Shown here: positions 3,053 through 51,153 of the stretch, piece by piece
Position numbering within the stretch: position 1 is the stretch's first letter
How the letters are laid out: each line of letters starts with the position of its first letter
NCBI GenBank assembly: GCA_965203375.1
Contig: OZ241886.1
Span: 28,818-92,817, forward strand
Reading direction: 5' to 3'
From: Candidatus Aldehydirespiratoraceae bacterium
Lineage (GTDB): Bacteria > Actinomycetota > Acidimicrobiia > Acidimicrobiales > Aldehydirespiratoraceae
DNA: 64,000 nt
Translations under genes and position numbers: made by a program
The notes under the pieces: model-generated
What the model was told of the DNA's origin: nothing
Seen by the model: the letters and a program-made list of their open reading frames with translations, nothing else
Database searches by the model: none

Positions 3053-3060
3053 ACGCAGGT

Positions 3061-4752: not shown

Positions 4753-4878
4753 AATACTTCCTGAGTGAATTGATGTGCCTGTATGAACCCTTTACCATTT
4801 TTCTCTAGTGCGATCGCTACCAGAATTATTTGAGCCTTGGAGGCGGAAATTTAACATAACCATGCTATACTCCGTACG

Positions 4879-7191
4879 GTGAATAGCCGAGGTGACACTG
4901 ACACTATACCTGCAACTGGTCTATCTGCCAACTCTTGCGATGAAGATCACATTGCACAGCGTCGAAAATTGGCCATGGTTTGGCTAACTGCAGGAAGCGC
5001 GGTTGCCTTCATGGTAGGGGCAGGTTGGCTTGATATTATCCGAAATGGTGGTGTACCACCAGGCGGTGACATGGTCGGCCACGCGGCCGCCGCAGAGTGG
5101 CTTAGGACTTTGCCATGGTGGAATTGGCGAGGCTGGTCGGATTGGTTTTACGGTGGTCAGGCCATCGGGATAAACTACCCGCCATTAGGTCTCAACTGGC
5201 TGCGCTTCACTCACTCGACCCATGGTCAGATGATGGCTGTGGCGCTTGGTTTGTTAGTGTTGCTGCCGTGGGGAACATTGCGCCTGACTCGATCGGTGAA
5301 CTATCCACCCCGACTGCAACGTATCTCAGTGGGAGCTGTTTTGGTGCTGACTGCCGCTTCAGGGGCTATGCACTGGGCGCTTCCTGGCTTCCATGCTTTG
5401 TATACCTTTTACAGTTCTTGGCCTTTCATGCTAGCGACGGTTATTGGCTTGTTTACTGCAGCTTGGGCGGCCCGATGTGATCGCCCCGTAGTTGCCGGAA
5501 TAATAGCCGGAGTAGCGTTGTTGTTGAACCCTACATCAGTTCCCGGTCTTAGCGTAGCGATCTTGGCGCTACTGGCCACCAGCGAGGCTTCGATTCGCCA
5601 GATCGTTCGTTGGATTATCACTGCTGGAGCCACTGCTTTGGTCGTTAGTGGTTGGTGGCTTATACCATTTTTGGCTTCATGGGATCGTCTTGTGCGCTGG
5701 GAAGTTCCGCTGCACCGATTCTGGGGCTTTGGAGGTATTTACCAGATACTGGTTCTTACTAGTGTGGGGATGGGGGCAGCATGGGCTAGTCGGTGGGATG
5801 GCCCATCTAGGCGGTTGTCAGGAGTGGCTGCCGCTGGCTTGACTGCTACTTTGTTGGCCGAATGGTTTGATTGGCTGCGCCCAGAGCGCTGGCTACCAAT
5901 AGCACTTCTTATAGCGACTATGGCCTGTGCCGGACTTGCCACGAGAGTGCCTATTTATCCGCCAACCAAGATCCGACCCGTCTGGAAATTACACGTTGTT
6001 CTAGGCTTGCTTCTTTTCGTAGTCCTCACCTTCCGATTTGAAGTCTTGGCACTTGCAGTGGGGGTGTTCCTCTTGCCGACACGTTCTTGGGCCTGGATGG
6101 GGGCTTTGGCATGGAGCGCGATTTTACTCTGGGGTGGCCTCTGGGGGGTTACGAGCGATGCACCAGATACATCAGCAGAGACCCCCACCGGAATTGTGTT
6201 AGCGCGGAGTGAACCCGATTCCAGTGGCTTGGTTTACATAGATAGAAAGATCATAGGTCAGACGAGTGACGTTCATAGATGTGGTTTAGGTCAACCCTGG
6301 TTGGACACGGCACGTACTGGCGGTCGTATCCGTCCATTGTTAGGGTTGTATAGAGAGACCAGCCCATCCTTTGAGTTTATTGCAACGGGACTTCTGATCA
6401 GCACCGGTCAATTGGGAGAGCGATACTCGGTGCGACCTCATTGGTTTGCAGTCTGGCAGGGTGCCGGAGCGCCCACGCTGGGCAGCCTTGCCGCTGCCGA
6501 GGCTCTGGGGGCCCGCTGGCACACGAGATGCGGCGAGGACGGCGACATCCTCCTGACCGACCTGTCAGGAGTGACGGCCAGCGGCGCGACTGTGGACGCT
6601 TATACATCTGAGGACGCGTGGCATCAAGCTGCGGCCCGATGGTGGATTCCGATCTCTGCCGGGGTCCGAACCGAACCGAAGACGTGGGAACCGGTGCCAA
6701 TCCGGGTTGAGGACGGTGATCCCAATCGTCCACTCAACCAGGCCGCGACCGGTGTGTGGATGCGCGCTGGCGACGGCCGCCTTACTGTGGGAGCGGATAC
6801 AGCGGGGTGGGTCTGGTTGCGCGTCCCTTGGGACCCCTACTGGCGTTTGTCGACTGGTGCCGCAGTACACAAGGGCGGCCCGGGTCATCTGATGGCCTGG
6901 GTCCCCGCTGGAGAAAGCGAGTTGACGTGGCAAGTGCCAGCCACGGTGAACGCCGCTGCCGTCGCCGTCACGGGGGTTGCCGCGCTCACGGTACTGGTCA
7001 TGGTCGTCGGGGACCGCCGTCGTCCAGAGCGTGGGCTAGATCTCAACCGTCCTAGTCCCGTCAGAGCCGCCGTCGGCCTGTACGCTGACACTGTGGACGA
7101 ATGGTTGGCCACCTTCGGCCGCTGGTCCCGGACTGCTGGCCGGCCGTTGAGCAGGATCATCGCTCGAACCCGCAACCGACGCCCTGGTTGA
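4879..7191 (+). CDS. Large polytopic membrane protein, GT-C-like / PTPS-related membrane family (tentative)
   Basis: 770-aa ORF with many TM segments in the first ~430 aa, a soluble C-terminal domain and a terminal TM helix. The N-terminal GGDMVGHAAAAEWL...GGQAIGINYPPLG motif is reminiscent of GT-C-like glycosyltransferases. GTG start; ATG4975 is an alternative. Confidence 0.45.
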   Translation: MNSRGDTDTIPATGLSANSCDEDHIAQRRKLAMVWLTAGSAVAFMVGAGWLDIIRNGGVPPGGDMVGHAAAAEWLRTLPWWNWRGWSDWFYGGQAIGINYPPLGLNWLRFTHSTHGQMMAVALGLLVLLPWGTLRLTRSVNYPPRLQRISVGAVLVLTAASGAMHWALPGFHALYTFYSSWPFMLATVIGLFTAAWAARCDRPVVAGIIAGVALLLNPTSVPGLSVAILALLATSEASIRQIVRWIITAGATALVVSGWWLIPFLASWDRLVRWEVPLHRFWGFGGIYQILVLTSVGMGAAWASRWDGPSRRLSGVAAAGLTATLLAEWFDWLRPERWLPIALLIATMACAGLATRVPIYPPTKIRPVWKLHVVLGLLLFVVLTFRFEVLALAVGVFLLPTRSWAWMGALAWSAILLWGGLWGVTSDAPDTSAETPTGIVLARSEPDSSGLVYIDRKIIGQTSDVHRCGLGQPWLDTARTGGRIRPLLGLYRETSPSFEFIATGLLISTGQLGERYSVRPHWFAVWQGAGAPTLGSLAAAEALGARWHTRCGEDGDILLTDLSGVTASGATVDAYTSEDAWHQAAARWWIPISAGVRTEPKTWEPVPIRVEDGDPNRPLNQAATGVWMRAGDGRLTVGADTAGWVWLRVPWDPYWRLSTGAAVHKGGPGHLMAWVPAGESELTWQVPATVNAAAVAVTGVAALTVLVMVVGDRRRPERGLDLNRPSPVRAAVGLYADTVDEWLATFGRWSRTAGRPLSRIIARTRNRRPG

Positions 7192-11743: not shown

Positions 11744-12500
11744 TTGGCTGAATCCGGCGCATCCGCCGTGAGCCGGTCCCGCCCGCTGAGAGGGCGGGCC
11801 GGCACGCGGGGCGAGGCTCTGGCGGTCGCCGTCTTGTTCTTGGGGGTGATCTTCACCATCTTTGATCGGGGTGCATGCGATGGCGGCGGCCACCGCCCGC
11901 ACCGCCGTGCAGGCCGCCGCGGACGCCGCCGCCGGCGCCGCCCAGATCACAGCCCCCAGCGACCGGGCAAACGAGGGCGCGCCGGCCGCCCGGATCGCTT
12001 CGGCCCGCAGCCCGCAGCCCGATCATCAAGACCCGCCCCCCCGGCGACGGCGGAGCCCGAGCGGAGCCAAGCGCAGATCCTGGCGTTCGACGGCATCATC
12101 TCGCCAGCCTTCGGCGGGAGCAGAGCTCAGCGCCCGGGCCTGCGGCCCCCTCGACGACACCACCACCCTCGGCTCCCAGCAACGCCGCGGCCCGGCAACG
12201 CCGAGGCACCGGCCGCGGCCCGCCCGCCGCCGCTCGCTTCGGGCCGCCGCCGCCCGCAGAGGCTCACGCCGCCGCGGCGAGGGCGGCACGGGCGCCGCCG
12301 TCGGGGCGGCGATGACGTTCCCGGCGCTGATGCCGGTGATCATCCTCACCCAGATGCTCTCTGACACCCGAGCCAAGCAGGCGCCGCAAGCTGTCGCCAA
12401 CCGGACAGCCCGGGTCGCCGCACTGTGCTGCTACCAGATCGACGGCACCAGCGGGGCGGCAGCGACAGTGCGAGCCGAGCTGGAAAGAGCAACCGACGCC
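11744..12500 (+). pseudogene. TadE-like A and B, copy 4, frameshifted and truncated
   Basis: MAESGASAVSRSRPLRGRAGTRGEALAVAVLFLGVIFTI, then a 1-nt indel (ATCTTTGATC versus ATCCTGATC in copy 2). Further frame breaks follow. The B part diverges after ...ELERATDAAGG near 12500. Confidence 0.5.
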
Positions 12501-12584
12501 GCCGGGGGGAAACGAGCCCACGTTCTCGGCCGTCTCGCTGTTGGCAGAGGCAGCGACGGCGAGGCATGGCACACTGGAGGGATC

Positions 12585-12797
12585 ATGAACGTCACGGCAG
12601 CAAGCGCGGTCGCCGCCTCCAGGCCAGCGGCGTCATCGCCCGGCGGCGACCAGGCGGCCTCCGGCCGGGCATCCGTCACAACAGCCTGCGGCGGCAAGGA
12701 AGCAGCACGGATGATCTCCCAAGGCGCGCAGAGCCTGGGAATGATCATTGCTCTGCTGACCTCCGGCGGACTGTTTCTTGTGATTCTCGCTCACTAG
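12585..12797 (+). CDS. Small hypothetical protein with C-terminal TM helix
   Basis: GGAGGG lies 5 nt before ATG12585. 70 codons ending in MIIALLTSGGLFLVILAH. It sits inside the longer chimeric track ORF 11862..12797. Confidence 0.35.
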   Translation: MNVTAASAVAASRPAASSPGGDQAASGRASVTTACGGKEAARMISQGAQSLGMIIALLTSGGLFLVILAH

Positions 12798-12819
12798 CAA
12801 GGAACAAGGGGCAAGCGAT

Positions 12820-13530
12820 ATGGGATGGGTTACGGGACTGATAATTTTAATTTCAACTGGTGGGGCGGGGTTTATTTGGACGTTTGAAAGACATGTTCCA
12901 AGCTTCCGCCAACATCTACCTGATCGAATCCATAAGCTGATCTATAGCAGCCTGATATTTGCAGTTCTCTATTCGTGGCCAATATACCTGGTATACACTT
13001 ATTACGTATCGCCCGACAATCGCCTTACATGGGGGGTGTGGCTAGGGCTGATAATGGCTGTAGTATTACCGCCTGTTCTGGGTGAGGTTGTAGGGATCTT
13101 TTGGGACAATATCCGCTCATACTGGGAACTAATACTCTATAAGGTATTCAAGCATAGACAGGAATGGCGTCCTCATATCCCCACGGGCTTTGATTATGTT
13201 ATCCGCTCATTGGTGAACCGACGAAAGTTGCGTCCGCTTGTTGTGATCCGCTTCACAGATACAGCAGGGGATAAGCCGTATCTTGTAATAGGACATCTGC
13301 TCCACGCTTCGTCGACGCCTAACCCGCAAGATATTTACCTAAATCCAATCTATTTCCTCGGGCCAGAAGAGAAGATATCGCACAAGAACGTAATCTTAGA
13401 TAAGCAAGATGAAGGATGCCTGATCAGCTATAAGGACGTCATATACACGAGGATCTTATTGCCCGAACCTCAGACAGACTCTTTCACGCACAGTCAACAA
13501 TCCATGGGAAGGGAATTGCACAATGCCTAG
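12820..13530 (+). CDS. Hypothetical membrane protein (N-terminal TM helices plus C-terminal soluble domain)
   Basis: 236-aa ORF in an AT-rich insertion with 3-4 TM helices, then VVIRFTDTAGDKPYLVIGHLLHASS...CLISYKDVIYTRILL. Confidence 0.55.
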   Translation: MGWVTGLIILISTGGAGFIWTFERHVPSFRQHLPDRIHKLIYSSLIFAVLYSWPIYLVYTYYVSPDNRLTWGVWLGLIMAVVLPPVLGEVVGIFWDNIRSYWELILYKVFKHRQEWRPHIPTGFDYVIRSLVNRRKLRPLVVIRFTDTAGDKPYLVIGHLLHASSTPNPQDIYLNPIYFLGPEEKISHKNVILDKQDEGCLISYKDVIYTRILLPEPQTDSFTHSQQSMGRELHNA

Positions 13531-13708
13531 AAGTCCAAGCGAACAACGACCAACCCGGAGCCGCCATAAAAGGTCCTTTGAGTACTGGGGCGGCCAAAAT
13601 GGCAAACCGCCAGATCAGATAGAAGTCTCTGATAACCTTCAACGGATCACTCCCGTGCCGTCTATCATGGAGGAATCCGACACACCAGAACCTACCAGCG
13701 ACGCCTGA
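13523..13708 (+). CDS. Small acidic hypothetical protein
   Basis: 61-aa ORF whose ATG overlaps the stop of 12820..13530 (AATGCCTAG). A paralog lies at 13942..14142. Confidence 0.4.
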   Translation: MPRSPSEQRPTRSRHKRSFEYWGGQNGKPPDQIEVSDNLQRITPVPSIMEESDTPEPTSDA

Positions 13709-13745
13709 TAATTCAGCCAGATCGGCCGCGACGCTCGGCGGCCGC

Positions 13746-13949
13746 CCAAGATATGCAGCGGCGAGTCCTCATCCATTAGATATCTATCTGAAGCCGGTGT
13801 TCTTCCACGGAACTAAGGAACTGTTGGCAGCCCGCGTGGGTGGCGATACACCTTATCTAGAACGTCAAGGACATGGTGTTCTAGTCCGATATGAGGATGT
13901 GTTGTTTACTATCGTATTGATCTCAGAAGAGGAGGAATCAAATGCCTAG
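13746..13949 (+). pseudogene. 5'-truncated paralog of 12820..13530
   Basis: SPHPLDIYLKPVFFHGTKE...VLVRYEDVLFTIVLISEEEESNA* aligns with TPNPQDIYLNPIYFLGPEE...LISYKDVIYTRILL...HNA*. No start codon or TM part. Confidence 0.5.
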
Positions 13950-14142
13950 AAACCGCACTAGAAACGAAGCAGCCGGGGTGGTCAGGACTGAGGGCCCTCC
14001 TGGATATTTATGGCCAGAGTATAACGGCCCTGACAGAATCCGGGTGCCTGACGCCATACTCTCGTGGCTTGATTCTTCGCCTCAAGGTGACAATTCCGGT
14101 GACGACTCCAACTCTCAGCAGGCATCAAAAAACGAGAAGTGA
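13942..14142 (+). CDS. Small acidic hypothetical protein (paralog of 13523..13708)
   Basis: 66-aa ORF with the same AATGCCTAG overlap junction. MPRN... versus MPRS..., and YNGPDRIRVPD versus NGKPPDQIEVSD. Confidence 0.4.
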   Translation: MPRNRTRNEAAGVVRTEGPPGYLWPEYNGPDRIRVPDAILSWLDSSPQGDNSGDDSNSQQASKNEK

Positions 14143-14354
14143 AGGAATCAACAAACCGGGTGCAAGACAGTAAGTCGAGGCCCTGCTGGATGTCGTTAAG
14201 ATGATTGCTGAAGAGGCAAGCGATTATGCTTATTCCTGTCAATTTCTGTGTTCGCTCTTTGGCGAGCCTCTTGACACGGGTTTCTTGATAAGCCATTGAC
14301 GTCAGCCCCAGAGGGGCTTACAGCAGCGAGCACAGCTCGGGCACCGCTGTTGGG

Positions 14355-14798
14355 GTGGCGATGATGTTCCCGGTGCTGATGATGGTGATTGTGCTCATCC
14401 AGATGCTGTCCGACACCACTCGTTCCGAGCAGGCGCTGCAGGCCGTCGCCAACCGGGCCGCCCGGGTCGCCGCTTTGTGTTGTTATCAGATCGACGGCGC
14501 CGGCGGGGCGGCGGCGACGGTGCGGGCCGGGCTGGAGAGAGTGACCGACGCAACCGCGGGCAACCGCATCTACTGCAACAACGACATGGCCGGCGACGCC
14601 AGCGTCGTGTTCATCGACGTTTCCGACAATGTGGTCGCCACCGGCGCGGTGCCGCCAGGGGGAACGGCCTACGTGTTCTTGACCTGCCGGATCCCGCCCC
14701 AGATCATCGGCGGCTTCGGCATCCCCGCCCTTGATGCCGAGCGCCTGCTGGTGGGCGCGGCCACCATCGACCCCTTCCGCTCCCGCTCCGGCACCTAA
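14355..14798 (+). CDS. TadE-like pseudopilin B, copy 5 (5' leader replaced at insertion junction)
   Basis: Intact ORF from VAMMFPVLMMVIVLIQML to DPFRSRSGT. Homology to B2 begins only near 14325, so it may be an expressed truncation or a pseudogene. Confidence 0.45.
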   Translation: MAMMFPVLMMVIVLIQMLSDTTRSEQALQAVANRAARVAALCCYQIDGAGGAAATVRAGLERVTDATAGNRIYCNNDMAGDASVVFIDVSDNVVATGAVPPGGTAYVFLTCRIPPQIIGGFGIPALDAERLLVGAATIDPFRSRSGT

Positions 14799-14892
14799 CC
14801 CCCACCCCCCACAGGGGGGGCCGGTTGCCCCGCGCTCGTCGCCCCGCCCGAGCCGAACTATCTGGCTTGTCGGCCGCGGGCGGAGCTTTCCA

Positions 14893-15300
14893 CTAGGGGC
14901 AGAAGACAGTTCGAATCTGCAGGTAGGCGGCGAAGCGGTCAGGGGCTCTGACATCCGCGTCCGCGATCACCAGGAACCGGCGATTGTCGCCCGCCGGTTC
15001 GCTGTGGCTCATGCTATGCCGTCGGCCGCCTGGCTCGGCTTCGGGGGACAGCTCCTGGAACTGGGCGAGGTCGCGCTCGATCACGTCCGCGTGGGCTTTG
15101 ATCCCGTCCGCGAGCCGGGTCAAGCACAACGCCTGCCCCTCTGGACCCGTCCCGGCGAGAGAGGCCCCGGCGTTGCCTATCCCGATGCTTGTCCCCCACA
15201 GGAGCCCGCCGCCGCCGCCGCCGCGGTTGTCGAACGCGTCGACCGGGGCCGGCACGCCGTCGGGGGAAAGGCGCCTCCTCGCCCTCGTAGCCCGCCGAGG
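14893..15300 (-). pseudogene. Paralog of 10084..10614, N-terminally disrupted
   Basis: The C-terminal 115 aa are nearly identical to 10084..10614. Upstream homology continues, but a 1-nt insertion and an in-frame stop (near 15260-15290) break the frame. Confidence 0.45.
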
Positions 15301-15585
15301 GGTGCGGTCTGAGGATGCCCCGCCGTCTGACCGCCCGTGAGCGAATCGAGGCGTCGATCCCAGAGGCCGACTTCTAGAGCCGATTCTGGGGCCGCTCCGA
15401 TCAGCGGCAGGCCCGGGTCATTGGAGCGGCAGCCGTCCGTGTTCGTTGGCGAATGCCTCGCTCAAAGCTTCCTGCCCGGCCGCCTGTGCCGCGCTCAGGG
15501 CCCGCTCGGCGGCGGCCCAGTCGGTGATCCAGTCTTTGTTGTCGGCGCGCATCCCCGAGATCGTTCCCGCTAGCTGAGACTCCTC

Positions 15586-15764
15586 TTAATCCTCTAGTTC
15601 TAGATCAGCCCAAGCCTGACCGCTCGGCCCAAGTACATGCTTTTCAAAAGCTTCCTTGACGGCACGATCTATGGATTCTTGTCGCCTATTGGTCTTAATT
15701 AGGGACGATATTTGGTTATGCGTCTCTTATCGACAATGCGTCTTTCTATTGTGCTGGTGAGCAC
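15586..15764 (-). pseudogene. Possible frameshifted small ORF downstream of the Ntn-like operon
   Basis: GTG15764 opens MLTSTIERRIVDKRRITKYRP*. The adjacent frame continues LIKTNRRQESIDRAVKEAFEKHVLGPSGQAWADLELED* with no start codon of its own. AT-rich like the island. Confidence 0.25.
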
Positions 15765-15786
15765 AGTATGCTGACCGAGGTTGAGA

Positions 15787-15981
15787 TCAGTCAGTTTCTC
15801 TTTGGCTTGACGTCCGATTCTCTGCTTCTTTCACGGCCTGCTCAAATATCTCTGCAGCAATACGCCGACCGAAAGCCCGCGGATCCTCGTGCGGTGTATC
15901 CTTAGGTATCTTATTCCTTTGGATAACTTTAGCAAGCCCCCGGAACTCTTGACGGAATGACTCTTCAGGTACTTGAGACAT
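15787..15981 (-). CDS. Small hypothetical protein (64 aa) coupled to the Ntn-like gene
   Basis: The ORF overlaps the 3' end of 15965..17320 by 17 nt on the same strand. AT-rich. Confidence 0.45.
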   Translation of the reverse strand: MSQVPEESFRQEFRGLAKVIQRNKIPKDTPHEDPRAFGRRIAAEIFEQAVKEAENRTSSQRETD

Positions 15982-17320
15982 CGTTCATCCTCCCTCGGAC
16001 TCGAACATCGTTCTTATCTTTATTTTCGGCTGGACTTAGGTTTCGGTTTAAGTACCTAAGGTTCAGCTCTGAGTCGAAATAGTGCTTACGCTTAATCCAT
16101 ATGAGGCCATCTCCTTTTGAGATAACAGCAACATCAATTGGACCACCGACATCTTCATACTCAGGCGTTACCCTACGCCGAAGTGATGTAAGAGATATAA
16201 GAGATTCCGCCATCTCAGCTAGCTCTTCTTTAGGCAGCAAATTAACTATAGACATAATTGGATCGGAATATTGATCCATAAGGTAACCACCAAGTTTATC
16301 TTGAAAGCTCTCAACTACTTCAGACCTAACTTTAGCCATTTCATCTAGTAGGTCCGAGTGCATAGAAGTTGAAATAGATTTCTTAATTTTATCTCCGAAG
16401 CGTTCAATAAGTCGCCCTATCACCTCATCAACAAAATCCTCAAGAACCAGACGATATTCAGGATGAATACCATCCATGAATGTTTCTATCATATCTCCTT
16501 GAGCAAATGGGCAAATAAAGGCAGACAATTCTACACCATTTGGATCTCTTACACCAATTTCAATACTCTTCAATAGGCGAGCCCTTATCTCTCTACCGGT
16601 GACACCATCAACCTCATAGTTCAATAGAGCAGGAAATAACTGGCTTGTACCGAATCCGACAACAACTACACCGCTAGAAAAAGGAGAAGCGACCTTAAGC
16701 GAAGCCCTTACCATAGCTTTAGCGCGTTGTCTGATTCTTTCACTTGATGGCAGGTCGCCCAAACATTCATCTACAAATTTTCTCCAATCGCCAACAGCCA
16801 AATTTATCTGTTTGCCAGCAGACACTTCACTTATCTCTTCAATTGACTCATACCTGCTAAGTTCATTGATTCTGGCTTCTATCTGGGAGATTACTTCATC
16901 ACGTATAACTTTCTTGCCGAGACGTTGAGACTTAGTACTCTTTTCTAGCAGCACTATTCTCACAGATTTACGTATATTGATCAACTCCCACATCGCTGTC
17001 TCAAAGATCCGTCTATACTGCTCGCTAGGATCGACAAATAAAGGTAACTTCCGGATAAAATCATCAGCATAGCCCTCAACTCTACTAAAATCATTTGATC
17101 CGAGATCACGTCGGTATTCTTTTACTATTGTCTCCCATGGTGTATGTCCGAAATTTGCTGATCCATAAACCATCACAGCAATTGGTTCATTCAATGAAAG
17201 GGGGAACAGCTTGTTAGCGGTGTTGTAGATCTTGCGGCCTTCAGGTCCGGTGAGCGTCACTGCGCTGTCGGCGGCAAGGGCTACTGCTTCTCGGTTGAGG
17301 ATTGCTACTTCAGCGGTCAC
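15965..17320 (-). CDS. Oversized proteasome-beta/HslV-like Ntn-hydrolase candidate with large insertions
   Basis: 451-aa ORF. MT-AEVAILNREAVALAADSAVT...NKLFPL...VYGSANF at the N-terminus, with VVVVGFG and GGPIDVAVISKGDGLIWIKRK near the C-terminus, follow the strand order and motifs of Thr1 Ntn hydrolases. The fold call is from motifs only. Confidence 0.5.
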   Translation of the reverse strand: MTAEVAILNREAVALAADSAVTLTGPEGRKIYNTANKLFPLSLNEPIAVMVYGSANFGHTPWETIVKEYRRDLGSNDFSRVEGYADDFIRKLPLFVDPSEQYRRIFETAMWELINIRKSVRIVLLEKSTKSQRLGKKVIRDEVISQIEARINELSRYESIEEISEVSAGKQINLAVGDWRKFVDECLGDLPSSERIRQRAKAMVRASLKVASPFSSGVVVVGFGTSQLFPALLNYEVDGVTGREIRARLLKSIEIGVRDPNGVELSAFICPFAQGDMIETFMDGIHPEYRLVLEDFVDEVIGRLIERFGDKIKKSISTSMHSDLLDEMAKVRSEVVESFQDKLGGYLMDQYSDPIMSIVNLLPKEELAEMAESLISLTSLRRRVTPEYEDVGGPIDVAVISKGDGLIWIKRKHYFDSELNLRYLNRNLSPAENKDKNDVRVRGRMNDVSST

Positions 17321-37934: not shown

Positions 37935-38714
37935 TCAGTGGTGGCGGACAAAGACGGGCTCGTCGGGGCGGGACCGGTCGGGGTCGTAGGCGTAGCCCAG
38001 GCCGGTGAAGTCCTGCAAGCCCCGGATCGACTTCAGTCGGCTGCGGATGATCCACCCGGCGGCGGCCCCCCGGGCCCGCTTGGCGAAGAAGGCGATCGTC
38101 TTGGGCTCGGCGCCGTCGCGGCTGTCGAGGAACTTGGGCGTGACCAGCCGCCCGTTGAGGCGGTCGGGGTTGACCGAGCGGAAGTACTCGTTGGAGGCCA
38201 GGTTGACGACGGCGTCCGGGCCGGGGCTGTCGGCCAGGTCGGCGTTGAGCACCTCGGTGATGCGGTCGCCCCAGAACTGGTACAGGTCCCGGCCCCGGTC
38301 GGTGGCCAGGGTGGAGCCCATCTCCAGCCGGTAGGGCTGCATCAGGTCGAGCGGGCGCAGCACCCCGTACAGGCCCGACAGGATGCGCAGCACCTTCTGG
38401 GCGTGGGTGTAGTCGCGCTCGGTGAAGGTGTTGGGCGCGTCCATGCCCATGTAGACGTCGCCGCTGAAGGCCAGCAGCGCGGGCCGGGCCGTGTTCGGCG
38501 TGAACGGCGCCTCCCAGTCCTGGAAGCGCTCGAAGTTCAGCTCGCCCAGCTCGGGGGAGATGCCCATCATGGCGCTGATCTCCTCGGGCGACTTGGCCGC
38601 CATGACCTCGGCCAGCGACTCGGCCTCGTTCAGCAGGCGGGGCTGGGAGTGCTTGCGGGTGGGCAGGGCCGAGGAGTAGTCGAGCGACTTGGCCGGAGAG
38701 ACGACGACCAGCAC
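37935..38714 (-). CDS. yaaA: Peroxide stress protein YaaA (DUF328/UPF0246)
   Basis: VLVVVSPAKSLDY...ISPELGELNFERFQDW.... GTG38714 is chosen because the upstream part of the track ORF runs into the palindromic repeats. Confidence 0.8.
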   Translation of the reverse strand: MLVVVSPAKSLDYSSALPTRKHSQPRLLNEAESLAEVMAAKSPEEISAMMGISPELGELNFERFQDWEAPFTPNTARPALLAFSGDVYMGMDAPNTFTERDYTHAQKVLRILSGLYGVLRPLDLMQPYRLEMGSTLATDRGRDLYQFWGDRITEVLNADLADSPGPDAVVNLASNEYFRSVNPDRLNGRLVTPKFLDSRDGAEPKTIAFFAKRARGAAAGWIIRSRLKSIRGLQDFTGLGYAYDPDRSRPDEPVFVRHH

Positions 38715-38796
38715 GCCCCCGTTATAGCGCCCCCCTCCCCCGGTTTCCCTCCCCGACCCCTTCGGCTCCCCGGGTCCCTCGGGTTTCTCCCTCGGG

Positions 38797-38968
38797 TTTT
38801 CTGAGCAAAAACCGTCGCTATACCGCAACGATCTGCTCAGAAAAGCCGGTCTCTCGGGTTTTCTGAGCAAAAATGGTCGCTATACGCCAACTTTCTGCTC
38901 AGAAAAGCCGGGCGCTCGGGTTTTCTGAGCAAAAATCGTCGCTATACCGCAACGATCTGCTCAGAAAA
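38797..38968. repeat. Three tandem 48-nt palindromic elements (62-bp period)
   Basis: TTTTCTGAGCA-N26-TGCTCAGAAAA at 38797-38844, 38859-38906 and 38921-38968. The inner part also pairs (ATCGTCGC..GCAACGAT), giving a long hairpin. Confidence 0.85.
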
Positions 38969-38991
38969 CGCGAGAGCGGAAGGCGGACGGG

Positions 38992-40167
38992 TCAGGACAG
39001 GGCGGGCAGGGCTCGGCGGAGGCTGCGGACGGCCTGCTGGATGCGCTGCTCGTTCTCGATGAGGGCGAAGCGCACATGGCCCTCGCCGCCGGAGCCGAAC
39101 CCGACGCCGGGCGACACCGCCACCTGGGCCTCGGTGACCAGGCGGGAGGCGAACTCGATGGAGCCCAGCCCGGCGTAGGGCTCCGGTATCGGCGCCCACA
39201 CGAACATGGTGCCCCGGGGCCTCTCCACCTCCCAGCCGATCCGGTTCAGGCCGTCGCACAGGGCGTTGCGGCGGGCCTCGTAGACGGCGGCGGCCTCAGC
39301 CGGGTAGTCGGGCAGGTCCCGCAGGGTGACCGTGGCCGCGATCTGGATGGGCTGGAAGCTCCCGTAGTCGAGGTAGCTCTTCAGCTTGGCCAGGGCCGCC
39401 ACCACGTCGGCTTGGCCCAGCATGAACGCCACCCGCCAGCCCGCCATCGAGAACGACTTGGTCATCGAATAGAGCTCGACCGCGCACTCCCGGGCTCCCT
39501 CGGCCTGCAGGATCGACGGGGGCCGGTAGCCGTTGAAGCCGAGGTCGGCGTAGGCGTTGTCGTGAACGATGAGCAGGTCCCGGCCGCGGGCGAAGTCCAC
39601 CACCTTCTGCATGAAGGCGAGGTCGACGCAGGCGGTGGTGGGGTTGTGGGGGAACGACATGACCGCCACCCGGGGCTTGGGCCAGCACTGCTGCCAGGCG
39701 GCGTGCAGCCGGTCGAAGAACTCCTCGCCCGCGCCCAGGGGAACCTCGCGGATGTCGGCGCCGGCGAACAGCGGCCCGTAAATGTGGATCGGGTAGCTCG
39801 GCGCCGGCACCAGGCAGGTGTCGCCGGGCTGAAGCAGCACCCACATGAGGTGGCTGAACCCCTCCTTGGCCCCGATGGTGTTGATCACCTCGGTGTCGGG
39901 GTCGAGCTCCACGCCGAACCGGCGCCGGTAAAGGTCGGCCATCGCCTCGCGCAGCCGGGGCAGGCCCCGGCTGGAGGAGTAGCGATGGTTGCGGGGGTTG
40001 CGGACCGCCTCGGCCAGCTTGTCCACCGCCGCATCGGGCGAGGGCAGGTCCGGGTTGCCGAAGCCCAAGTCGATGATGTCGGTTCCGGCCCGGCGGGCCT
40101 CGATCTTCAGGTCGTTGATGATGGTGAAGACGTAGGGGGGCAGGCCCTTGATGCGCCGGAACTCCAT
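38992..40167 (-). CDS. Class I/II aminotransferase (alanine/aspartate aminotransferase-like)
   Basis: MEFRRIKGLPPYVFTIINDLKIEARRAGTDIIDLGFGNPDLPSP...SMTKSFSMAGWRVAF (PLP Lys region). Confidence 0.85.
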   Translation of the reverse strand: MEFRRIKGLPPYVFTIINDLKIEARRAGTDIIDLGFGNPDLPSPDAAVDKLAEAVRNPRNHRYSSSRGLPRLREAMADLYRRRFGVELDPDTEVINTIGAKEGFSHLMWVLLQPGDTCLVPAPSYPIHIYGPLFAGADIREVPLGAGEEFFDRLHAAWQQCWPKPRVAVMSFPHNPTTACVDLAFMQKVVDFARGRDLLIVHDNAYADLGFNGYRPPSILQAEGARECAVELYSMTKSFSMAGWRVAFMLGQADVVAALAKLKSYLDYGSFQPIQIAATVTLRDLPDYPAEAAAVYEARRNALCDGLNRIGWEVERPRGTMFVWAPIPEPYAGLGSIEFASRLVTEAQVAVSPGVGFGSGGEGHVRFALIENEQRIQQAVRSLRRALPALS

Positions 40168-41037: not shown

Positions 41038-41085
41038 CCCGCCGATCCTAACGAGAGCCCCGCGGGCTACCTCAAGCCCACACAC

Positions 41086-41460
41086 GGCGGGTCGGCGGGA
41101 CGGCGGGGACGGGCAGGGACGGCGGGGACGGCGGACGGCGGGGACGGCGGACGGCGGGGACGGCGGGGGGACCGGCGGACGGCGGGGACGGCGGGGGGAC
41201 CGGCGGACGGCGGGGACGGCGGGGACGGGCAGGGACGGCGGGGACGGCGGACGGCGGGGACGGCGGACGGCGGGGACGGCGGACGGCGGGGACGGCGGAC
41301 GGCGGGGACGGCGGACGGCGGGGACGGCGGACGGCGGGGACGGCGGGGGGACCGGCGGACGGCGGGGACGGCGGGGACGGCGGGGGGACCGGCGGACGGC
41401 GGGGACGGCGGGGACGGCGGGGGGACCGGCGGACGGCGGGGACGGCGGGACGGCGGGACG
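41086..41460. repeat. G-rich minisatellite (GGACGGCGG / GGGGACGGCGG units)
   Basis: About 375 bp of imperfect 7-9-nt units with many GGGG runs on the plus strand. Translates on the minus strand as (PSPPSAVPAVRRPRRP)n. Confidence 0.85.
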
Positions 41461-41501: not shown

Positions 41502-41549
41502 TTTTCTGAGCAACCGTTTGCGGCATACCTACATCGGATGCTCAGAAAA
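41502..41549. repeat. Fourth copy of the 48-nt palindromic element (inverted orientation)
   Basis: TTTTCTGAGCA-N26-TGCTCAGAAAA. The inner CGTTTGCGGCATACCTAC resembles the reverse complement of the core in the 38.8-kb copies. Confidence 0.75.
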
Positions 41550-41668
41550 CCAGAGGGATGTAGGGTCGGCGCGATGGCGAAGCGCCTACTTGACCGCGCC
41601 CGGACGGAAGGCGGGGCGTTGATCCCGTCGGACCCGACGGCCCGGACGAGTGCGCCAACCCGGGCGGA

Positions 41669-42256
41669 ATGCGGCCGGATCGGGAGGCGGCGTTGATCCT
41701 GTCGGACCGCTCGATCCGGGAGGCCCTGGAGTCGGGACGCATCGCCATCGACCCCCTCGACCCGGCCAGCATCCAGCCGTCGTCGGTGGACCTGCGGCTC
41801 GACCGCTCGTTCCGGGTGTTCCGCAACCACACCCTGGGCCACATCGACGTGCGCAAAGACCTCAGCGACCTGACCACCCTGCTGCGCGCCGACGAGGCCG
41901 ACCCGTTCATCCTGCACCCGGGCGAGTTCGTGCTCGGATGCACCCTGGAGCGGGTGGCCCTGCCCGACGACTTGGTGGGCCGGCTGGAGGGCAAGTCGTC
42001 GCTGGGCCGGCTGGGCCTGCTGATCCACTCGACCGCCGGGTTCGTGGACGCCGGCTTCGACGGCCAGCTCACCCTGGAGCTGTCCAACGTGGCCAGCCTG
42101 CCCATCACCCTGTTCCCCGGCATGAAGATCGGCCAGGTCAGCTTCCACCAGATGACCACCCCGGCCGACAACCCCTACGGCGCCGGGGAGCTGCGCTCGA
42201 AGTACCAGAGCCAGCGCGGCCCCATGCCCTCCCGATACTGGGAGAACTTCGCCTGA
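41669..42256 (+). CDS. dcd: dCTP deaminase
   Basis: [36 protein letters not shown]...[15 protein letters not shown]. The exact start is uncertain. Confidence 0.85.
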
Positions 42257-46802: not shown

Positions 46803-47759
46803 TTATCGGGCTCTAGAGGTCGCACGGCGATCAATCTCCTCGATCAGCCTTTTGGAGGCTACTCTGATTGCTTCTTTATCAGGGTCGCCTTGTTCGCGGC
46901 GCCAGTCGATGGACGTTTTGAATGTCGGCCCGGGTGCCAACAGAACTGAAACATCTAGCGACCTCCCCTCCGTCGGGTCACACTCGTAGCCGATGACCCC
47001 GTTGTTGACTAGCCGCTTGCGCACCTGTCCAAAGAAATCGGGTCGCACGCCGTCAAAGTCCGGGAGCTCGAAGCAGGCCGCGGCCATCACTTTGGAGAAC
47101 ACGGTGGTGCTGACTCCCATGTCTTGCCCGGCTAACCTTTCCCCAGCGGCAGCCATGGCTTCGGCCATGTCTATCCAGCCCAGTTTGATCCTGCCCGGTT
47201 CGCCTACCCCATCCGGCGGGGCATGCAACTCTACCTCCACGGTCGGGAACCGCTCTTCGAGCCAAGTCAGCAGGGTCGGCCGGATCAGGTCCCAGTTGAG
47301 CCGTCCGTTGCCACATCCCAGCGCCGGGACAGCCATCGATTTGATCTTCCATTCCTCGTTCTGGTCAGCGGCGTAGGAGAGTCCTCGGTCTATGTCGGAA
47401 AGCCGCGACTGGGGCTGTTTCCAGTGGTCTTTGGTCGGGAAGTTCAGCACATGCTTCACCGACAGTGACGGCGCAGACTCGAGAGTGTCCCCGTCAAACA
47501 AGATGCCTTGCTCTGAGTCTGGTGTCGGCGGATCAGGTCGCCACAGATACGGCCGCCCGAGCTTTACCTCGCCAGCGGCACATTTCTTCTCGTATTCGGC
47601 GACCATCTCAGCATAGGCGGCGTTCTCGCGGAACAATGCCGCTACTCCCTTGCCCATCACCCCCCGACAATTCACCGTGTTCACCAAGGTTCGCGCGGAC
47701 GAAGCAAGCAAGTCGCCTGACTCTCGGAGTGTCACGCCCATGACCGATCCCGCTCCCAA
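46803..47759 (-). CDS. darG: DarG antitoxin (macrodomain ADP-ribosylglycohydrolase plus C-terminal domain)
   Basis: LVNTVNCRGVMGKGVAALF...VPALGCGNGRL macrodomain motifs. Overlaps the upstream darT. Confidence 0.8.
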   Translation of the reverse strand: MGAGSVMGVTLRESGDLLASSARTLVNTVNCRGVMGKGVAALFRENAAYAEMVAEYEKKCAAGEVKLGRPYLWRPDPPTPDSEQGILFDGDTLESAPSLSVKHVLNFPTKDHWKQPQSRLSDIDRGLSYAADQNEEWKIKSMAVPALGCGNGRLNWDLIRPTLLTWLEERFPTVEVELHAPPDGVGEPGRIKLGWIDMAEAMAAAGERLAGQDMGVSTTVFSKVMAAACFELPDFDGVRPDFFGQVRKRLVNNGVIGYECDPTEGRSLDVSVLLAPGPTFKTSIDWRREQGDPDKEAIRVASKRLIEEIDRRATSRAR

Positions 47760-48382
47760 TCGTGGAATAACGCTGGGTCAATCGACACCTTGAAGGATTC
47801 GCGTAAACTGCTTGCGGCAGCCGCCGCTGATCGGACGCGATCATAGTGGTCGAACAACGGCGGCTGAGGCAGATGCGACCCTAATCCCACGACCGCGCCG
47901 ATCAACATGTCTGGCCCCACCGAATCTGGGATCAGTGCTTCGGCTTGTGATCGCTCATTCGGGGGACGGGCGAACACCCGCTCCGCATCCAGCTTGTCCA
48001 AGCCTAAATCGACATGCTTGTAGAACTTAGCTTTGTCCCTAGCGGCGTTAAATACAGAAACCACAGCACCCGTGACATCCAGAACGTTAGAAGAGATCTT
48101 CAGCACACACACCGACGCGTCTCCCTCTGACCCCAGTACCTCGCGCAGCATCCAGTTGTGAGCCGTAAAATAGAGGGGCACATACTCGTGCAGCGGCTTG
48201 CGCCCACCGCCACGCACCGACACCTCTTTCGCAGCACGCCTCTTCTGGACCTCTTCATCAGCCACGGAGCAATGCAGTATCTCATCAGCGGATTTGTGGC
48301 TGAGAATGCCTAGTTTGAAGATGGAAGGCAGGTTATCGATCGGGGCGATGTAGTACAATTCTCGGATGTCAGTGCGGCGCAC
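47732..48382 (-). CDS. darT: DarT DNA ADP-ribosyltransferase toxin (DUF4433)
   Basis: ELYYIAPIDNLPSIFKLGILSH...HEYVPLYF...SQAEALIPDSV layout typical of DUF4433/DarT. Followed by the macrodomain gene. Confidence 0.8.
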   Translation of the reverse strand: MRRTDIRELYYIAPIDNLPSIFKLGILSHKSADEILHCSVADEEVQKRRAAKEVSVRGGGRKPLHEYVPLYFTAHNWMLREVLGSEGDASVCVLKISSNVLDVTGAVVSVFNAARDKAKFYKHVDLGLDKLDAERVFARPPNERSQAEALIPDSVGPDMLIGAVVGLGSHLPQPPLFDHYDRVRSAAAAASSLRESFKVSIDPALFHDWERDRSWA

Positions 48383-48687: not shown

Positions 48688-50112
48688 TCAAGCCGGGAAG
48701 AGGGCGGGGGCTGTTTGCAGTGGCGGGTCGGGGCCGTTGGCCGGGTGGGCTGATCCGGGGCGGGTCGGGGCCGGTTGGGCACGGGCTCTGGCTGGTTGCG
48801 GGCTGCGGCTCGGCTGTGAGTTGCGGCTCGGTCGTGGTCGTCGGGATTCGCGGGGGTGTCGGTCGTGGGGGTGTCGGCCGTCGGCGGGTCCGGGCGGAGC
48901 GAGCGGGTCGGGCGGTTGCAGGGCGGGTTTGCCGTTGCGGTGGACGACTCGCCAGTGGTGGTCGTGGATGTTGTGGTGGCAGCGCCAGCAGACGAGGACG
49001 AGGTTTTCGATGTCGGTGCGCCGTAGTCGGGCGTAGGGGACGATGTGGTGGGCCTGGCATTGGCCGGGTTCGGCACCGCAGCCGACGCAGCCGCGGTCGC
49101 GGGCGATGAGCATCCGCCATTGGGCGGTGGTGGCGGTGCGCACCGTGGCCCCGTGGCGCAGCGGTTTGCCGTCGCTGAAAAGGAGCCCGGTGAGCTGGGC
49201 GTCGCAGGCTATGCGCTGTAGCACCTCAGGGGGAACAGGCCCGGTGCCGGGGATCTCGCAGCGCCCGGCGGGATCGTCGCCGGTGAGGGCACCGATGTCG
49301 GCCACCACGATGACCTCGGCCTTGGGCCGCCCACCGGCGCCGCCGCGTCCCTTGTCGTCGGCGGCACCAGATGTGAGCCGATCGAGGGCGTCGGCCCGGA
49401 GCTGGTCCCAAGTCCGGCTCTCGCTTTCGTCGGGTCTGTTGCCAGCGGCTGCGCTGTCGCGGTTGCGGGCTGTTTGCTGGTCTTGGCAGCGGAGCTCTTC
49501 GGCGGTGTCTTGGAGGCGGTTGCAGATGCGGGTGCCGGTCTCGGGGTCCAACAGGCCGTCGAGGCGGACCATGCCGTCTTGTTGCTTCCAGGTCTTGAGG
49601 TACCGCCGCCGGCGCTTGTTGACCCAGTCGCCGTGGCCGTGGTCGCTTTGGTGGCGCTGAGTCCAAGCGCTGACTTCGCGGGCGAACCGGTCGGGGGACA
49701 GTTCCTTGGCCATGGCCAGCAGATCAGCCGCGGAATCAACCGCTTTAGGGGCTGTGTGCTTGGCCGCGTCAGCCAGGCGCTCGGCATTGGCCAATGACAC
49801 TTCCCCGGAATCGACCGACGAGCGCAGCGAGGGCATCTCGTCGAGAACCTCAGCGGCACCCAGGCTGCGGCGAGCCTGAACCCTCGACTTGCCGGCCTGG
49901 TCGCGCAGCACCGAGGCTCCGCCGTCGCCGTGTCCCTCCCGGGCTGAGATGGATCGGGCGGCGTCGGTCTGCAAGGCGGCCACATTGGCCTCCCAGGACC
50001 GGGTGACCGCGATCAGTTCCTTCAGGCGAACTACCGGCAGTTCCCCGGCCCGGACCGCTTCCAGCAGCCGGGCCAGTCCCCCGTTGACACATTCGACCGT
50101 TTCAGTGAACAT
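48688..50112 (-). CDS. DUF222 domain / HNH endonuclease (13E12-repeat-like) protein
   Basis: The N-terminal DUF222-like helical region is followed by RGCVGCGAEPGQCQAHHIVPY...LVLVCWRCHHNIH (HNH). Confidence 0.8.
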   Translation of the reverse strand: MFTETVECVNGGLARLLEAVRAGELPVVRLKELIAVTRSWEANVAALQTDAARSISAREGHGDGGASVLRDQAGKSRVQARRSLGAAEVLDEMPSLRSSVDSGEVSLANAERLADAAKHTAPKAVDSAADLLAMAKELSPDRFAREVSAWTQRHQSDHGHGDWVNKRRRRYLKTWKQQDGMVRLDGLLDPETGTRICNRLQDTAEELRCQDQQTARNRDSAAAGNRPDESESRTWDQLRADALDRLTSGAADDKGRGGAGGRPKAEVIVVADIGALTGDDPAGRCEIPGTGPVPPEVLQRIACDAQLTGLLFSDGKPLRHGATVRTATTAQWRMLIARDRGCVGCGAEPGQCQAHHIVPYARLRRTDIENLVLVCWRCHHNIHDHHWRVVHRNGKPALQPPDPLAPPGPADGRHPHDRHPRESRRPRPSRNSQPSRSPQPARARAQPAPTRPGSAHPANGPDPPLQTAPALFPA

Positions 50113-50379
50113 GTGATCACTCTACAACATGGGTGAGACAATCACACCCCTTATCCCGATATTTTCTGAAATTTTCTGAGATTTCTTTGAATGCATCCGA
50201 AACATCCCCCAACAACGGGTCAGACCTGCCACCACATCGGACGAGCCGCACATGGGAGTCGGAGCGAACCGGGCAGTTCGTGTGAGCGGGAGCCCCAGCA
50301 CCAAGCGCCCAGGCCGGGGGTGGCACGGGGGCGGAGTCACGCCAATTCAGTGTTGCCGTGAAGGCCTCCGTGCATACTC

Positions 50380-51153
50380 CTAGTGCAGGCCGGCCGTTTG
50401 GCCGGCGTCGATGACGAAGCACTGGCCGGTTATGAATCGGGCCGCGTCGCTGGCGAGGAAGACGACCAGCGATGCGACGTCGCCGGGGCCGATGGTTCCG
50501 GGGAGCGTCTGGTAGCGCTCAATGTAGCCGGCCACCTGCTGGGCGGTGAGGTGGCTGGTCAACGGGGTGTCGACGAGTCCTGGGCAGATGGCGTTGGCCC
50601 GTATGTTGTCGGCGCCGTAGTCGAGCGCCACCGACCGGGTGAGGCTGATGGCCCCGGCCTTGGCCGCCGCGTAGGCGGCCTTCTCCCGCGAGGGCCGCAG
50701 GCCGAGGGTTCCCGCGGTCACCAAGAACACACCGCCCCCTCGCCTGATCAGAGCCGGGATCGCGTGTCTGGCGCTCAGGAAGACGCTGGTGAGGTTGGTG
50801 GCGATGCACCGGTCCCATTCCGCCTCCGAGGTCTGGGTGACGCTGCCCTCGGGGCTGATGCCAGCGTTGTTGAAATACACGTCGAGGCCGCCGAACGAGT
50901 CCTGGGTGAAGGCGAGGAGACCGGCGATGTCGGCGTCGTCGGTCACGTCTGCTCGATGGCTGCGGGCCTGACCGCCGGCGGCGTTGATCTCGTCGGCCAC
51001 CTCGGAGATGCCGTCCTGAGTCCGGCCCGCGGCGACAACGGCGGCGCCGGCGGCGGCCAGAGCGACGCTGGCGGCCCGGCCGATGCCGGAGCCCGCGCCG
51101 GTGACGACGGCGACTCGGCCGTCGAGCCGGAGATCGGCCGGCCTAGCGGTCAT
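50380..51153 (-). CDS. SDR family oxidoreductase
   Basis: VAVVTGAGSGIGRA (TGxxxGxG), NNAG and YAAAKAG (YxxxK). Confidence 0.85.
   Translation of the reverse strand: MTARPADLRLDGRVAVVTGAGSGIGRAASVALAAAGAAVVAAGRTQDGISEVADEINAAGGQARSHRADVTDDADIAGLLAFTQDSFGGLDVYFNNAGISPEGSVTQTSEAEWDRCIATNLTSVFLSARHAIPALIRRGGGVFLVTAGTLGLRPSREKAAYAAAKAGAISLTRSVALDYGADNIRANAICPGLVDTPLTSHLTAQQVAGYIERYQTLPGTIGPGDVASLVVFLASDAARFITGQCFVIDAGQTAGLH

Follow-up and report, generated by a model that had tools for sequence, protein, structure and literature searches.

Palindromic hairpin elements of Acidimicrobiales as a probable family of non-autonomous, insertional repeats

Four palindromic elements lie in a 64,000-nt stretch of contig OZ241886.1 (hereafter the window), from a host that the names of its homologues place in the Acidimicrobiales. 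They are probably copies of a non-autonomous, insertional hairpin repeat family of that order, of the same kind as repetitive extragenic palindromes (REP), Rickettsia palindromic elements (RPE) and the TRIT hairpins of Mycobacterium. The family is interspersed, inserts without target duplication, amplifies in tandem, occurs in either orientation, prefers gene ends and has constrained arms. We found no literature on the arm sequence, or on REP or REP-associated tyrosine transposases (RAYT) in Acidimicrobiia or Actinobacteria, and consider the family previously undescribed.

Short interspersed palindromes such as REP, TRIT and RPE are widespread and their movement and role are debated, and they have hardly been described in Actinomycetota outside Mycobacterium. 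The class has been little studied, and the present family amounts to an unusually clean natural experiment in it: sites that are empty in one genome hold one, two or three copies in others, at 93-98.5% nucleotide identity, and one copy lies in frame within a gene. Purifying selection on the arm is measurable, whereas the remainder of the element changes about as fast as the spacer around it. This makes two questions directly testable: what protein recognizes the arm, and do the copies benefit the host? A more modest, practical use is that the elements explain AT-rich islands, inflated open reading frame (ORF) calls and variable spacers in these metagenome-assembled genomes (MAGs), and could serve as strain markers.

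Copies, anatomy and distribution of the family

The pattern TTTTCTGAGCA-N26-TGCTCAGAAAA has four exact matches in the window (Table 1), with none in the shuffled window and none expected by chance, and the 11-nt arm occurs eight times against 0.28 expected. This bears out a preliminary description of the stretch, made from the sequence alone, which had listed four palindromic units with a 26-nt gap, three of them in tandem between an aminotransferase gene and yaaA. Tandem Repeats Finder (score 300) and a repeat search give the trio a 62-nt period over 2.9 units with 88-90% identity. The trio lies in the 277-nt spacer that separates these two co-directional genes (aminotransferase stop to yaaA start). 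The fourth copy, as had also been stated, is inverted and lies in the spacer of the divergent ppk2 and dcd genes; its distances from them are 464 nt and 143 nt, respectively. A covariance model was built from 30 members of the family and run on the window with filters off, as well as on 425 kb of other loci. The trio scores best on the minus strand (65, 56 and 53 bits versus 50, 32 and 33 bits on plus) and copy 4 on the plus strand (52.8 versus 44.3 bits), and copy 4 is therefore inverted relative to the trio. The G+C content at the element region falls to 53-60% in a genome of ~70%.

The unit of ~61-65 nt reads CCCnCGG-TTTTCTGAGCA-(25-26 nt)-TGCTCAGAAAA-CCGnGGG, the central 25-26 nt holding an internal loop, an inner stem and a pentaloop. 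All members have the outer stem GG(G/T)TTTTCTGAGCA / TGCTCAGAAAA(C/A)CC, often lengthened by CCCnCGG / CCGnGGG, followed by a symmetric unpaired internal loop of 4-5 nt per side, an inner stem of 5-6 bp and a pentaloop that is TATAG or its complement CTATA. The inner stem differs by genome, being TTGTCG:CGACAA in an uncultured Acidimicrobiales MAG (CATQHS), GCGCG:CGCGC in two further assemblies (OFTM10 and CAXMSE) and register-shifted in the window trio. A covariation analysis, which had been recommended as a check, shows that the inner helix covaries: both partners have changed in 5/6 pairs, and 87.5% of cells pair, against 36-51% when the partner side is shifted out of register. Compared with shuffles, the window units fold with z-scores of -3.6 to -8.1 as RNA and -4.6 to -6.8 as DNA, and the common two-tier hairpin of the family with -7.6 to -9.2. 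The elements had been called long, nearly perfect hairpins. This holds for the outer 11 bp and 3-4 flanking pairs, to which perfect pairing is restricted; the inner part is imperfect and approaches perfection only as minus-strand RNA, where G-U pairs improve the fold of the trio (-33 versus -27 kcal/mol). Sense RNA is more stable than antisense in 11/20 copies, which marks the G-U pattern of the trio as local rather than general. The pentaloop is at times flipped relative to the internal loop (loci L067 and L010; L numbers denote individual loci throughout), which is typical of DNA hairpin-loop inversion.

Within copy 4, the inner part (41513-41538) holds CCTACATC, which is exactly the reverse complement of GATGTAGG, a stretch of the ancestral flank immediately beyond the element (41555-41566); in the canonical element at the same site in L067, the corresponding inner stretch reads GATTGTCG. 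From the sequences, this change looks like a multi-base templated event (quasi-palindrome, template switch), and it sets up an alternative pairing that competes with the main hairpin.

No T-run follows the stem on either strand; a T-run precedes the stem and an A-run follows it on both. A consensus scan for sigma-70 promoters and terminators returned nothing at the elements. An intrinsic (Rho-independent) terminator is thus rejected, in agreement with the earlier remark that no U-tract follows in either orientation. Rfam 15, searched at gathering and permissive thresholds, gave no element match and only two tRNAs in the window; the best match on an element was an unrelated eukaryotic hairpin at 28.6 bits against a threshold of 47.

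A pattern search of genomes had been proposed, and the family clearly reaches beyond the local duplication that the preliminary description had kept open, since it occurs in several Acidimicrobiales genomes. One genome per prokaryotic species was scanned with TTTCTGAGCA-N22-30-TGCTCAGAAA, and 43 loci were returned, about half of which are unrelated low-GC chance matches; the window's own contig is not among them. At least 16 family members with the same arms and a 25-nt gap lie on one 3.27-Mb contig of CATQHS (CATQHS010000001.1). Others were found in the Acidimicrobiales MAG OFTM10 (six), the bin CAXMSE (three) and L038 (one). A metagenome pattern scan returned only 1-2 family members, a viral pattern scan only chance matches, and blastn against plasmids and phages no match. 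Degenerate relics were found neither with a regular expression allowing two substitutions per arm nor with the covariance model in the window and the 425 kb: the model recovers intact copies only (in the window the four described, in the loci those already known), and its score range of ~13-32 bits is empty but for two atypical long-gap hairpins.

Three observations concern these assemblies. The CAXMSE01 contigs (L005, L031, L042) are labelled uncultured Gammaproteobacteria, have 65% G+C and carry family elements; they share ~91% nucleotide identity with OFTM10 over a sigma-70/DAHP synthase locus and have a beta-lactamase locus in common with it. L038, labelled 'Binatia', bears a CATQHS-type element, and both sets of contigs are likely mis-binned or mislabelled. 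On CATQHS010000001.1, the stretches 0.21-0.89 Mb and 1.97-3.12 Mb contain all 16 exact-arm copies, in mixed orientations, and the 1.08 Mb between them has none (rough chance ~0.04); this gap could be the origin or terminus region, the GC skew of 8-kb blocks being too weak to place the origin. Just upstream of the complete element in L013 (4325-4375) are partial direct duplications of the left arm and flank (CCTACTAGGTTTTCTAAC / CCTACTTGGGTTTTTCTGAGCA, and GGTTTTCTGATG), the sole solo-arm pieces seen.

Genes around the copies were called with a caller based on third-position G+C (GC3), and ~45 neighbours were checked by Pfam. Tabulation of positions relative to genes, another of the proposed checks, places nearly all copies in intergenic DNA, often occupying the entire spacer, 3-90 nt from gene ends. 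Contexts are convergent in ~8 cases, co-directional in ~13 and divergent in 2-3 (window copy 4, L026, L020), and both orientations relative to transcription occur. Distances to stop codons are 3-44 nt, and the left arm can itself provide the stop codon: in L014, L034 and L038 the upstream gene ends at a TGA within it (GTT TTC TGA). The neighbours are unrelated housekeeping genes, including aconitase, sigma-70, DAHP synthase, a class I tRNA synthetase, RNase H, helicases, short-chain dehydrogenases/reductases and others. A regulon operator is rejected, because the ~45 Pfam-annotated neighbours have no common function and about a third of the sites are convergent. L021, where two copies flank a gene, was considered as a REPtron and rejected, the gene encoding a lipoprotein and no transposase.

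Insertion alleles and constraint on the arms

Syntenic loci were gathered through protein homologues of the aminotransferase, independently of the repeat pattern. Flanking genes are ~98.5% identical to the window at the nucleotide level in strains of the same species (L059-L062), 97% in L069, 93-94% in L063, L065 and L067 (96% to each other) and 85% in L068. The spacer between the aminotransferase and yaaA measures 17-19 nt and has no element in L063/L064, L065/L066 and L067 (tgaC(T)CCGCTATAACGGGGGGCgtg; empty-site sequence in L063-L067, tgaCCCGCTATAACGGGGGGCgtg). It measures 146 nt with one element in L069, and 241-278 nt with three elements in the window species (window, L059-L062). A single insertion in a shared ancestor of L069 and the window species gave rise to the trio, the one copy later being amplified to three; the single unit in L069 places the origin of the array in local amplification. 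In the more distant L068 (11177-11277), the same spacer holds another repeat of two ~37-nt units (GGCCTGGCCTGAACCGAACCGGGTT...), and the spacer seems prone to acquiring repeats.

Copy 4 is an insertion separate from the trio. The junction GACCCTACATCC^GCGA between dcd and ppk2 is empty in L063 and L065 (87-93 nt), and all filled alleles start exactly after GACCCTACATCC and end before G(C/A)GA(A/G)G. A single copy, diverged in its inner part and with a gap of 26, is present in the window clade and L069, and L067 has two tandem canonical copies with a gap of 25 and a period of 60, whose inner part is only ~65% identical to that of copy 4. Either two independent insertions occurred at one junction, or an old insertion underwent precise loss and replacement, and the process is active and site-precise either way. 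No target-site duplication is visible at the three analyzable junctions; at the yaaA and dcd-ppk2 sites an ambiguous 1-2 nt is possible.

One copy lies within a gene. In L025 (1374-1418), the element is read in frame (GFSEHPLSYGDNPCSEN) in the interdomain linker of a MutA-like protein (methylmalonyl-CoA mutase small subunit), as part of an in-frame insertion of ~31 aa that gives a linker of 38 aa versus 7 aa in M. tuberculosis MutA (6oxc_B). The element-encoded peptide is present also in a sister genome of 96-97% identity only, and absent from homologues of 82-85% identity. Other homologues have unrelated insertions of up to ~45 aa in this linker.

The arms are constrained in place. Strains of the window species were compared at loci fetched by protein, which frees the comparison from ascertainment by the pattern. 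Segregating sites number 0/88 in the arms, 9/104 in the inner part, 19/64 in the 8-nt flanks and 110/1631 (6.7%) at third codon positions of five flanking genes (arms, binomial P = 0.002; Fisher P = 0.004 for arms versus inner part, 0.0055 versus third codon positions and 4e-6 versus inner part plus flanks). The arms are likewise unchanged in L069 and L067. Inner variation falls mostly in one 4-nt patch (ACGA / CCGA / ACCA / ATGA / ACGG ...) on one side of the inner stem (38815-38822, 38877-38884, 38939-38946); its variants are uncompensated and recur at different array positions, which suggests exchange between array members and not point mutation. As the inner variation looks like shuffling within the array, the third-codon comparison is the safer one. 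The arm sequence itself, and not just its pairing, is maintained. Arms that stay invariant while their surroundings vary, together with the lack of near-miss copies, argue for sequence-specific recognition: something reads the arm.

Table 1. Coordinates of the hairpin copies, their flanking genes and the candidate partner locus in the window
Feature	Coordinates	Strand	Basis and remarks
Hairpin copy 1	38797..38844	-	Exact pattern; covariance model 55.9 bits on minus; fold z = -5.9 to -6.5
Hairpin copy 2	38859..38906	-	Exact pattern; covariance model 65 bits on minus; folding
Hairpin copy 3	38921..38968	-	Exact pattern; covariance model 52.9 bits on minus; folding
Tandem array	38791..38968		62-nt period, 2.9 units; unit of 48-nt core plus 14-nt linker
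Lineage-specific insertion block, ~260 nt	38730..38989		C/T-rich lead-in, three elements, G/A-rich tail; aminotransferase-yaaA spacer
Hairpin copy 4	41502..41549	+	Inverted relative to trio; diverged inner part; exact pattern, covariance model, folding
yaaA, downstream flank of trio	37935..38714	-	Pfam H2O2_YaaD; GTG start set from called 259-aa orthologues
Class I/II aminotransferase, upstream flank of trio	38992..40167	-	Pfam; homologues
ppk2, 267 aa	40234..41037	-	Pfam; orthologue calls; sequence
dcd (dCTP deaminase), TTG start	41693..42256	+	Pfam DCD; orthologue calls; sequence
DUF222+HNH endonuclease gene of a multi-copy family	48688..50112	-	Pfam; paralogue list; context of L027; speculative trans-acting partner
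Arm-like words (CTCAGAAAAT / TTCAGAAAAT on minus strand)	50160..50190		Just 5' of DUF222-HNH promoter block; possibly related, not a copy

Longest-ORF calls that reach into the elements (a 311-aa 'yaaA' and a 430-aa 'ppk2') are artefacts. The longer ppk2 ORF (to 41526) runs across a GC-rich repeat beside copy 4 in the dcd-ppk2 spacer, a 9-nt tandem repeat (ACGGCGGGG)n of ~43 copies and ~87% G+C (41084-41457), which yields a false 163-aa N-terminal extension. This repeat varies in length and sequence among same-species strains (L059, L060, L061) and is absent in the 97% relative L069. On the other side of copy 4 (41560-41700; L059, 8678-8880), the dcd 5' end and its upstream DNA (~70 nt, ...GGTC(C/G)GACAGGATCAACGCC...) are duplicated 2-3 times before the real dcd start, in a copy number that varies between strains. 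Elsewhere in the window, 1149-7191 and 11862-17320 hold ORFs of 391, 248, 563, 770, 311, 252 and 451 aa without a Pfam match and with third-position G+C below that of the rest of the window, one adjacent ORF matching DUF6338; these regions may be a foreign island.

Mechanism, rival readings and a candidate partner

The units insert into short spacers between genes, and in at least one case into a tolerant protein linker, with no visible target duplication, and then amplify locally as direct tandem arrays. The arms may be the recognition site of a trans-acting protein, either a mobilizing enzyme, a host factor or both. Transposition might proceed through a folded single-strand hairpin, as in HUH/Y1 systems (REP-RAYT, IS200/IS605), rather than by DDE cut-and-paste. 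Any effect on neighbouring genes would be independent of orientation, coming from a stable stem-loop placed after stop codons or between cistrons.

Several points weigh against the reading as a mobile repeat. Purifying selection on the arms in situ is not expected of a purely selfish, decaying repeat and points to a function at each site, a rival explanation that is not mutually exclusive with mobility. The single-strand mechanism would follow from anatomy and the lack of target duplication only. A search for an associated transposase, which had been advised, found no mobilizing enzyme with E. coli RayT (tblastn) or an HUH...YxxxNP motif, hence no RAYT/Y1, in the 718 kb sampled (~5% of each genome), and no transposase is present among the ~45 immediate neighbours. 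The element ends lack the REP tags, and the copy number is modest (16 exact-arm copies in 3.27 Mb).

A possible, if rather unlikely, rival is a host-function hairpin of the TRIT type, in which a transcribed double-stranded RNA (dsRNA) stem at gene ends is bound by a dedicated factor and mobility only creates the sites; its role would be factor-assisted bidirectional termination, 3'-end protection or intercistronic processing. The selection on the arms fits such a device, as do the strong preference for places right after stop codons and for convergent spacers, the ability to work in either orientation that palindromic arms confer, and the precedent in Mycobacterium (PMC3152330). Against it stand the 2-3 copies in divergent promoter regions and the one within a coding region, the close relatives that lack the element at the same sites, and the missing U-tract, with sense RNA no more stable than antisense. 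A distinct hairpin with a T-tract after the element in L005 and L015 also counts against it, and TRIT itself overlapped few mapped 3' ends in Term-seq. That hairpin (CCGGAGTCCCGC...GCGGGACTCCGG then CCGTTTTC; L005, 5545-5590, and L015, reverse complement) immediately follows the element between the sigma-70 and DAHP synthase genes and shows compensatory differences between both genomes; the element is therefore not the terminator there. The mobile-repeat and TRIT-type readings are compatible, not exclusive.

It is improbable that the elements are double-stranded DNA sites, operators or nucleoid-organizing, for a palindrome-recognizing protein to which the hairpin is incidental. Such sites would fit the sequence invariance of the inverted 11-bp arms, the modest copy number in each genome and the presence of related words ahead of HNH gene promoters, but the half-sites lie 36-37 bp apart centre to centre, the pairing of the inner stem is kept by covariation, a third of the copies lie between convergent genes, and the neighbours share no function. 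Moreover, coding DNA is avoided, unlike with parS/matS/SBS-type sites, and the sites arise by whole-unit insertion. The preliminary description had offered a protein-binding palindrome; a modified version of this proposal stands, in which the invariance of the arms within the species, amid varying surroundings, implies that they are recognized by sequence.

An ordinary miniature inverted-repeat transposable element (MITE), that is, a deletion derivative of an insertion sequence (IS) with a DDE transposase, moved through its terminal inverted repeats, is very unlikely. Inverted terminal arms, small size, intergenic spread and presence/absence polymorphism are what a MITE would show. It would also be expected to show a target-site duplication, but none is present at the three analyzable junctions, and no IS with GGTTTTCTGAGCA ends was found in the loci sampled; besides, the unit forms a single palindrome throughout, its interior is structured, and it amplifies as direct tandem arrays. 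A structured RNA, either a small RNA gene (an option also raised earlier) or a cis-regulatory RNA of yaaA and dcd/ppk2 in particular, is effectively refuted by the distribution: the trio does lie in the yaaA leader and gains stability through G-U pairs on the minus strand, but Rfam gives no match, other copies flank unrelated genes in both orientations, no general sense-strand advantage exists, and relatives lack the element at these genes. A CRISPR array is rejected, since the 14-nt linkers recur as well and copies at other loci stand alone, as is an integron attC, with no RYYYAAC ... GTTRRRY cores in the consensus and housekeeping genes as neighbours.

The only candidate for the factor that reads the arm is the DUF222-HNH family, on circumstantial support. 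The proposal that the arm (TTTTCTGAGCA) is the recognition word of this family, with the hairpins as non-autonomous partners in a REP-RAYT-like arrangement of another enzyme class, is doubtful. A stretch at about 50167-50190 had been noted as related to the palindromes; it lies 50-80 nt upstream of the DUF222+HNH gene. It is not a copy: 50160-50190 consists of a 10-nt direct repeat (ATTTTCTGAA/ATTTTCTGAG/ATTTCTTTGA), has no more than a 9-mer in common with the arm and is negative with the covariance model, and it may still be related. The family is multi-copy, with at least eight paralogues on the window's contig, at least six on a 3.66-Mb contig of a close relative, at least three in CATQHS and at least five on the sister contig of CATQHS. 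Those in CATQHS share 73-76% identity with the window copy. The CATQHS and window genomes nevertheless look distant: the top aminotransferase matches (77% identity or more) do not include CATQHS, and the MutA of CATQHS is only ~54% identical to that of a 3,545,664-bp genome whose aminotransferase is 80% identical to the window's.

Three canonical HNH loci have a common promoter block, GGGGTGTGATTGTCTCACC...TGTTGTA(G/T)AGTGATCA(C/T)ATG, and its ending ...TA(G/T)AGTGATCA(C/T)ATG (window 48688-50380, L073) suggests, as judged from sequence, a leaderless or very short-leader mRNA. Just 5' of the block is an AT-rich patch that reads ATCTCAGAAAATTTCAGAAAAT in the window, ATTTCTGAGTTATCTCAGGTAT in L073 and only ATTTCTAGATAATTTCAGG in L074. 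The word TTTCTGAG occurs just three times outside elements in 410 kb, two of these within HNH upstream patches. The promoter block has a homologue at a distant DUF222-HNH gene of OFTM10 (L027), where 12 nt separate it from the end of a complete element. Against a partnership, L074 lacks the exact word, no element flanks or brackets the HNH genes in the window or CATQHS, and the upstream patches, being AT-rich and in part homologous, do not count as independent events. No further HNH loci were found in viral contigs.

Two observations on these loci stand apart. The CATQHS DUF222-HNH gene has ~110-nt inverted repeats on its flanks and is followed by three 70-nt tandem repeats (L073, 3745-3895 and 5600-5740), and the locus looks like a transposon-like cassette. 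Directly downstream of the window gene is a toxin-antitoxin pair of DarT (47732-48382, minus) and a Macro-domain DarG-like protein (46803-47759, minus); L065 has DarT/Macro and a second DarT, with no HNH gene in the stretch covered.

Comparison with known systems

The preliminary description had called the elements REP/MITE-like. The REP part of that comparison is apt in that they are interspersed, present or absent in close relatives, amplified in tandem and lacking a U-tract; they are neither strict MITEs, for want of a target duplication, nor strict REPs, by size and tag. REPs are imperfect palindromes of 20-40 nt with a GTAG or CGTC tetranucleotide at one end (Di Nocera 2013, PMC3733652), and GTAG REPs were not reported in Actinomycetota in that survey. 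With REP and REPIN the family has in common short, interspersed, imperfect palindromes that are extragenic and mostly downstream of genes, a stem interrupted by mismatches, species-specific sequence families, differences between close strains, occasional intragenic copies and no target duplication. Many extragenic copies, mainly downstream, are present (16 on the 3.27-Mb contig, four in the window and others in 3-4 MAGs). REPs are thought to move as single-strand hairpins, and the same may apply here. The family differs in its larger core of 47-48 nt (~61-65 nt with the paired flanks), its consensus ends CCCnCGGnTTTT... and ...AAAACCCGnGGG with no GTAG/CGTC tag, clusters that are direct tandem repeats and not alternating arrays of the BIME type, exact copies that number only in the tens per genome, and the lack of a RAYT in the DNA sampled.

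The 147 TRIT hairpins are conserved palindromes at Mycobacterium gene ends that overlap stop codons, and a dsRNA-binding factor was proposed for them (Gardner et al. 2011, PMC3152330). Here too an actinobacterial palindromic hairpin is conserved in sequence and structure, lacks a U-tail, is bidirectional and is tied to gene ends, with overlapped stops in three loci. Conservation of the TRIT stem sequence suggested a binding factor (PMC3152330). TRIT, compared by description as Rfam has no TRIT model, is another sequence family in another class (the window family belonging to Acidimicrobiia) with ~10-fold more copies, and insertion polymorphism, tandem amplification and in-frame intragenic insertion are documented for the window family.

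RPEs likewise insert in frame into protein-coding genes at tolerant positions, as in the mutA linker of L025, but are 100-150 bp long, CGTC-tagged and frequently intragenic, whereas one intragenic copy was seen here. MITEs such as the Neisseria Correia/NEMIS elements are also small, non-autonomous, intergenic, co-transcribed repeats with inverted ends and long hairpins, and the terminal inverted repeats have a counterpart in the 11-15-bp perfect inverted arms. They differ in having target-site duplications (TA for Correia) and an origin from DDE IS, neither of which was found for the window family: filled and empty alleles at yaaA and dcd-ppk2 show no duplicated flank, on which a strict MITE is rejected, and no parent IS with the same ends is present in the loci sampled.

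Finally, REP13E12 has been described as repeated cassettes in Mycobacterium (Gordon et al. 1999, according to its citation in PMC10589994), and the window and CATQHS genomes similarly carry multi-copy DUF222+HNH genes. REP13E12 has no short hairpin repeat linked to it, and the link made here is new and circumstantial; if true, it would give a function to the long-unexplained REP13E12/DUF222 proteins of Actinobacteria.

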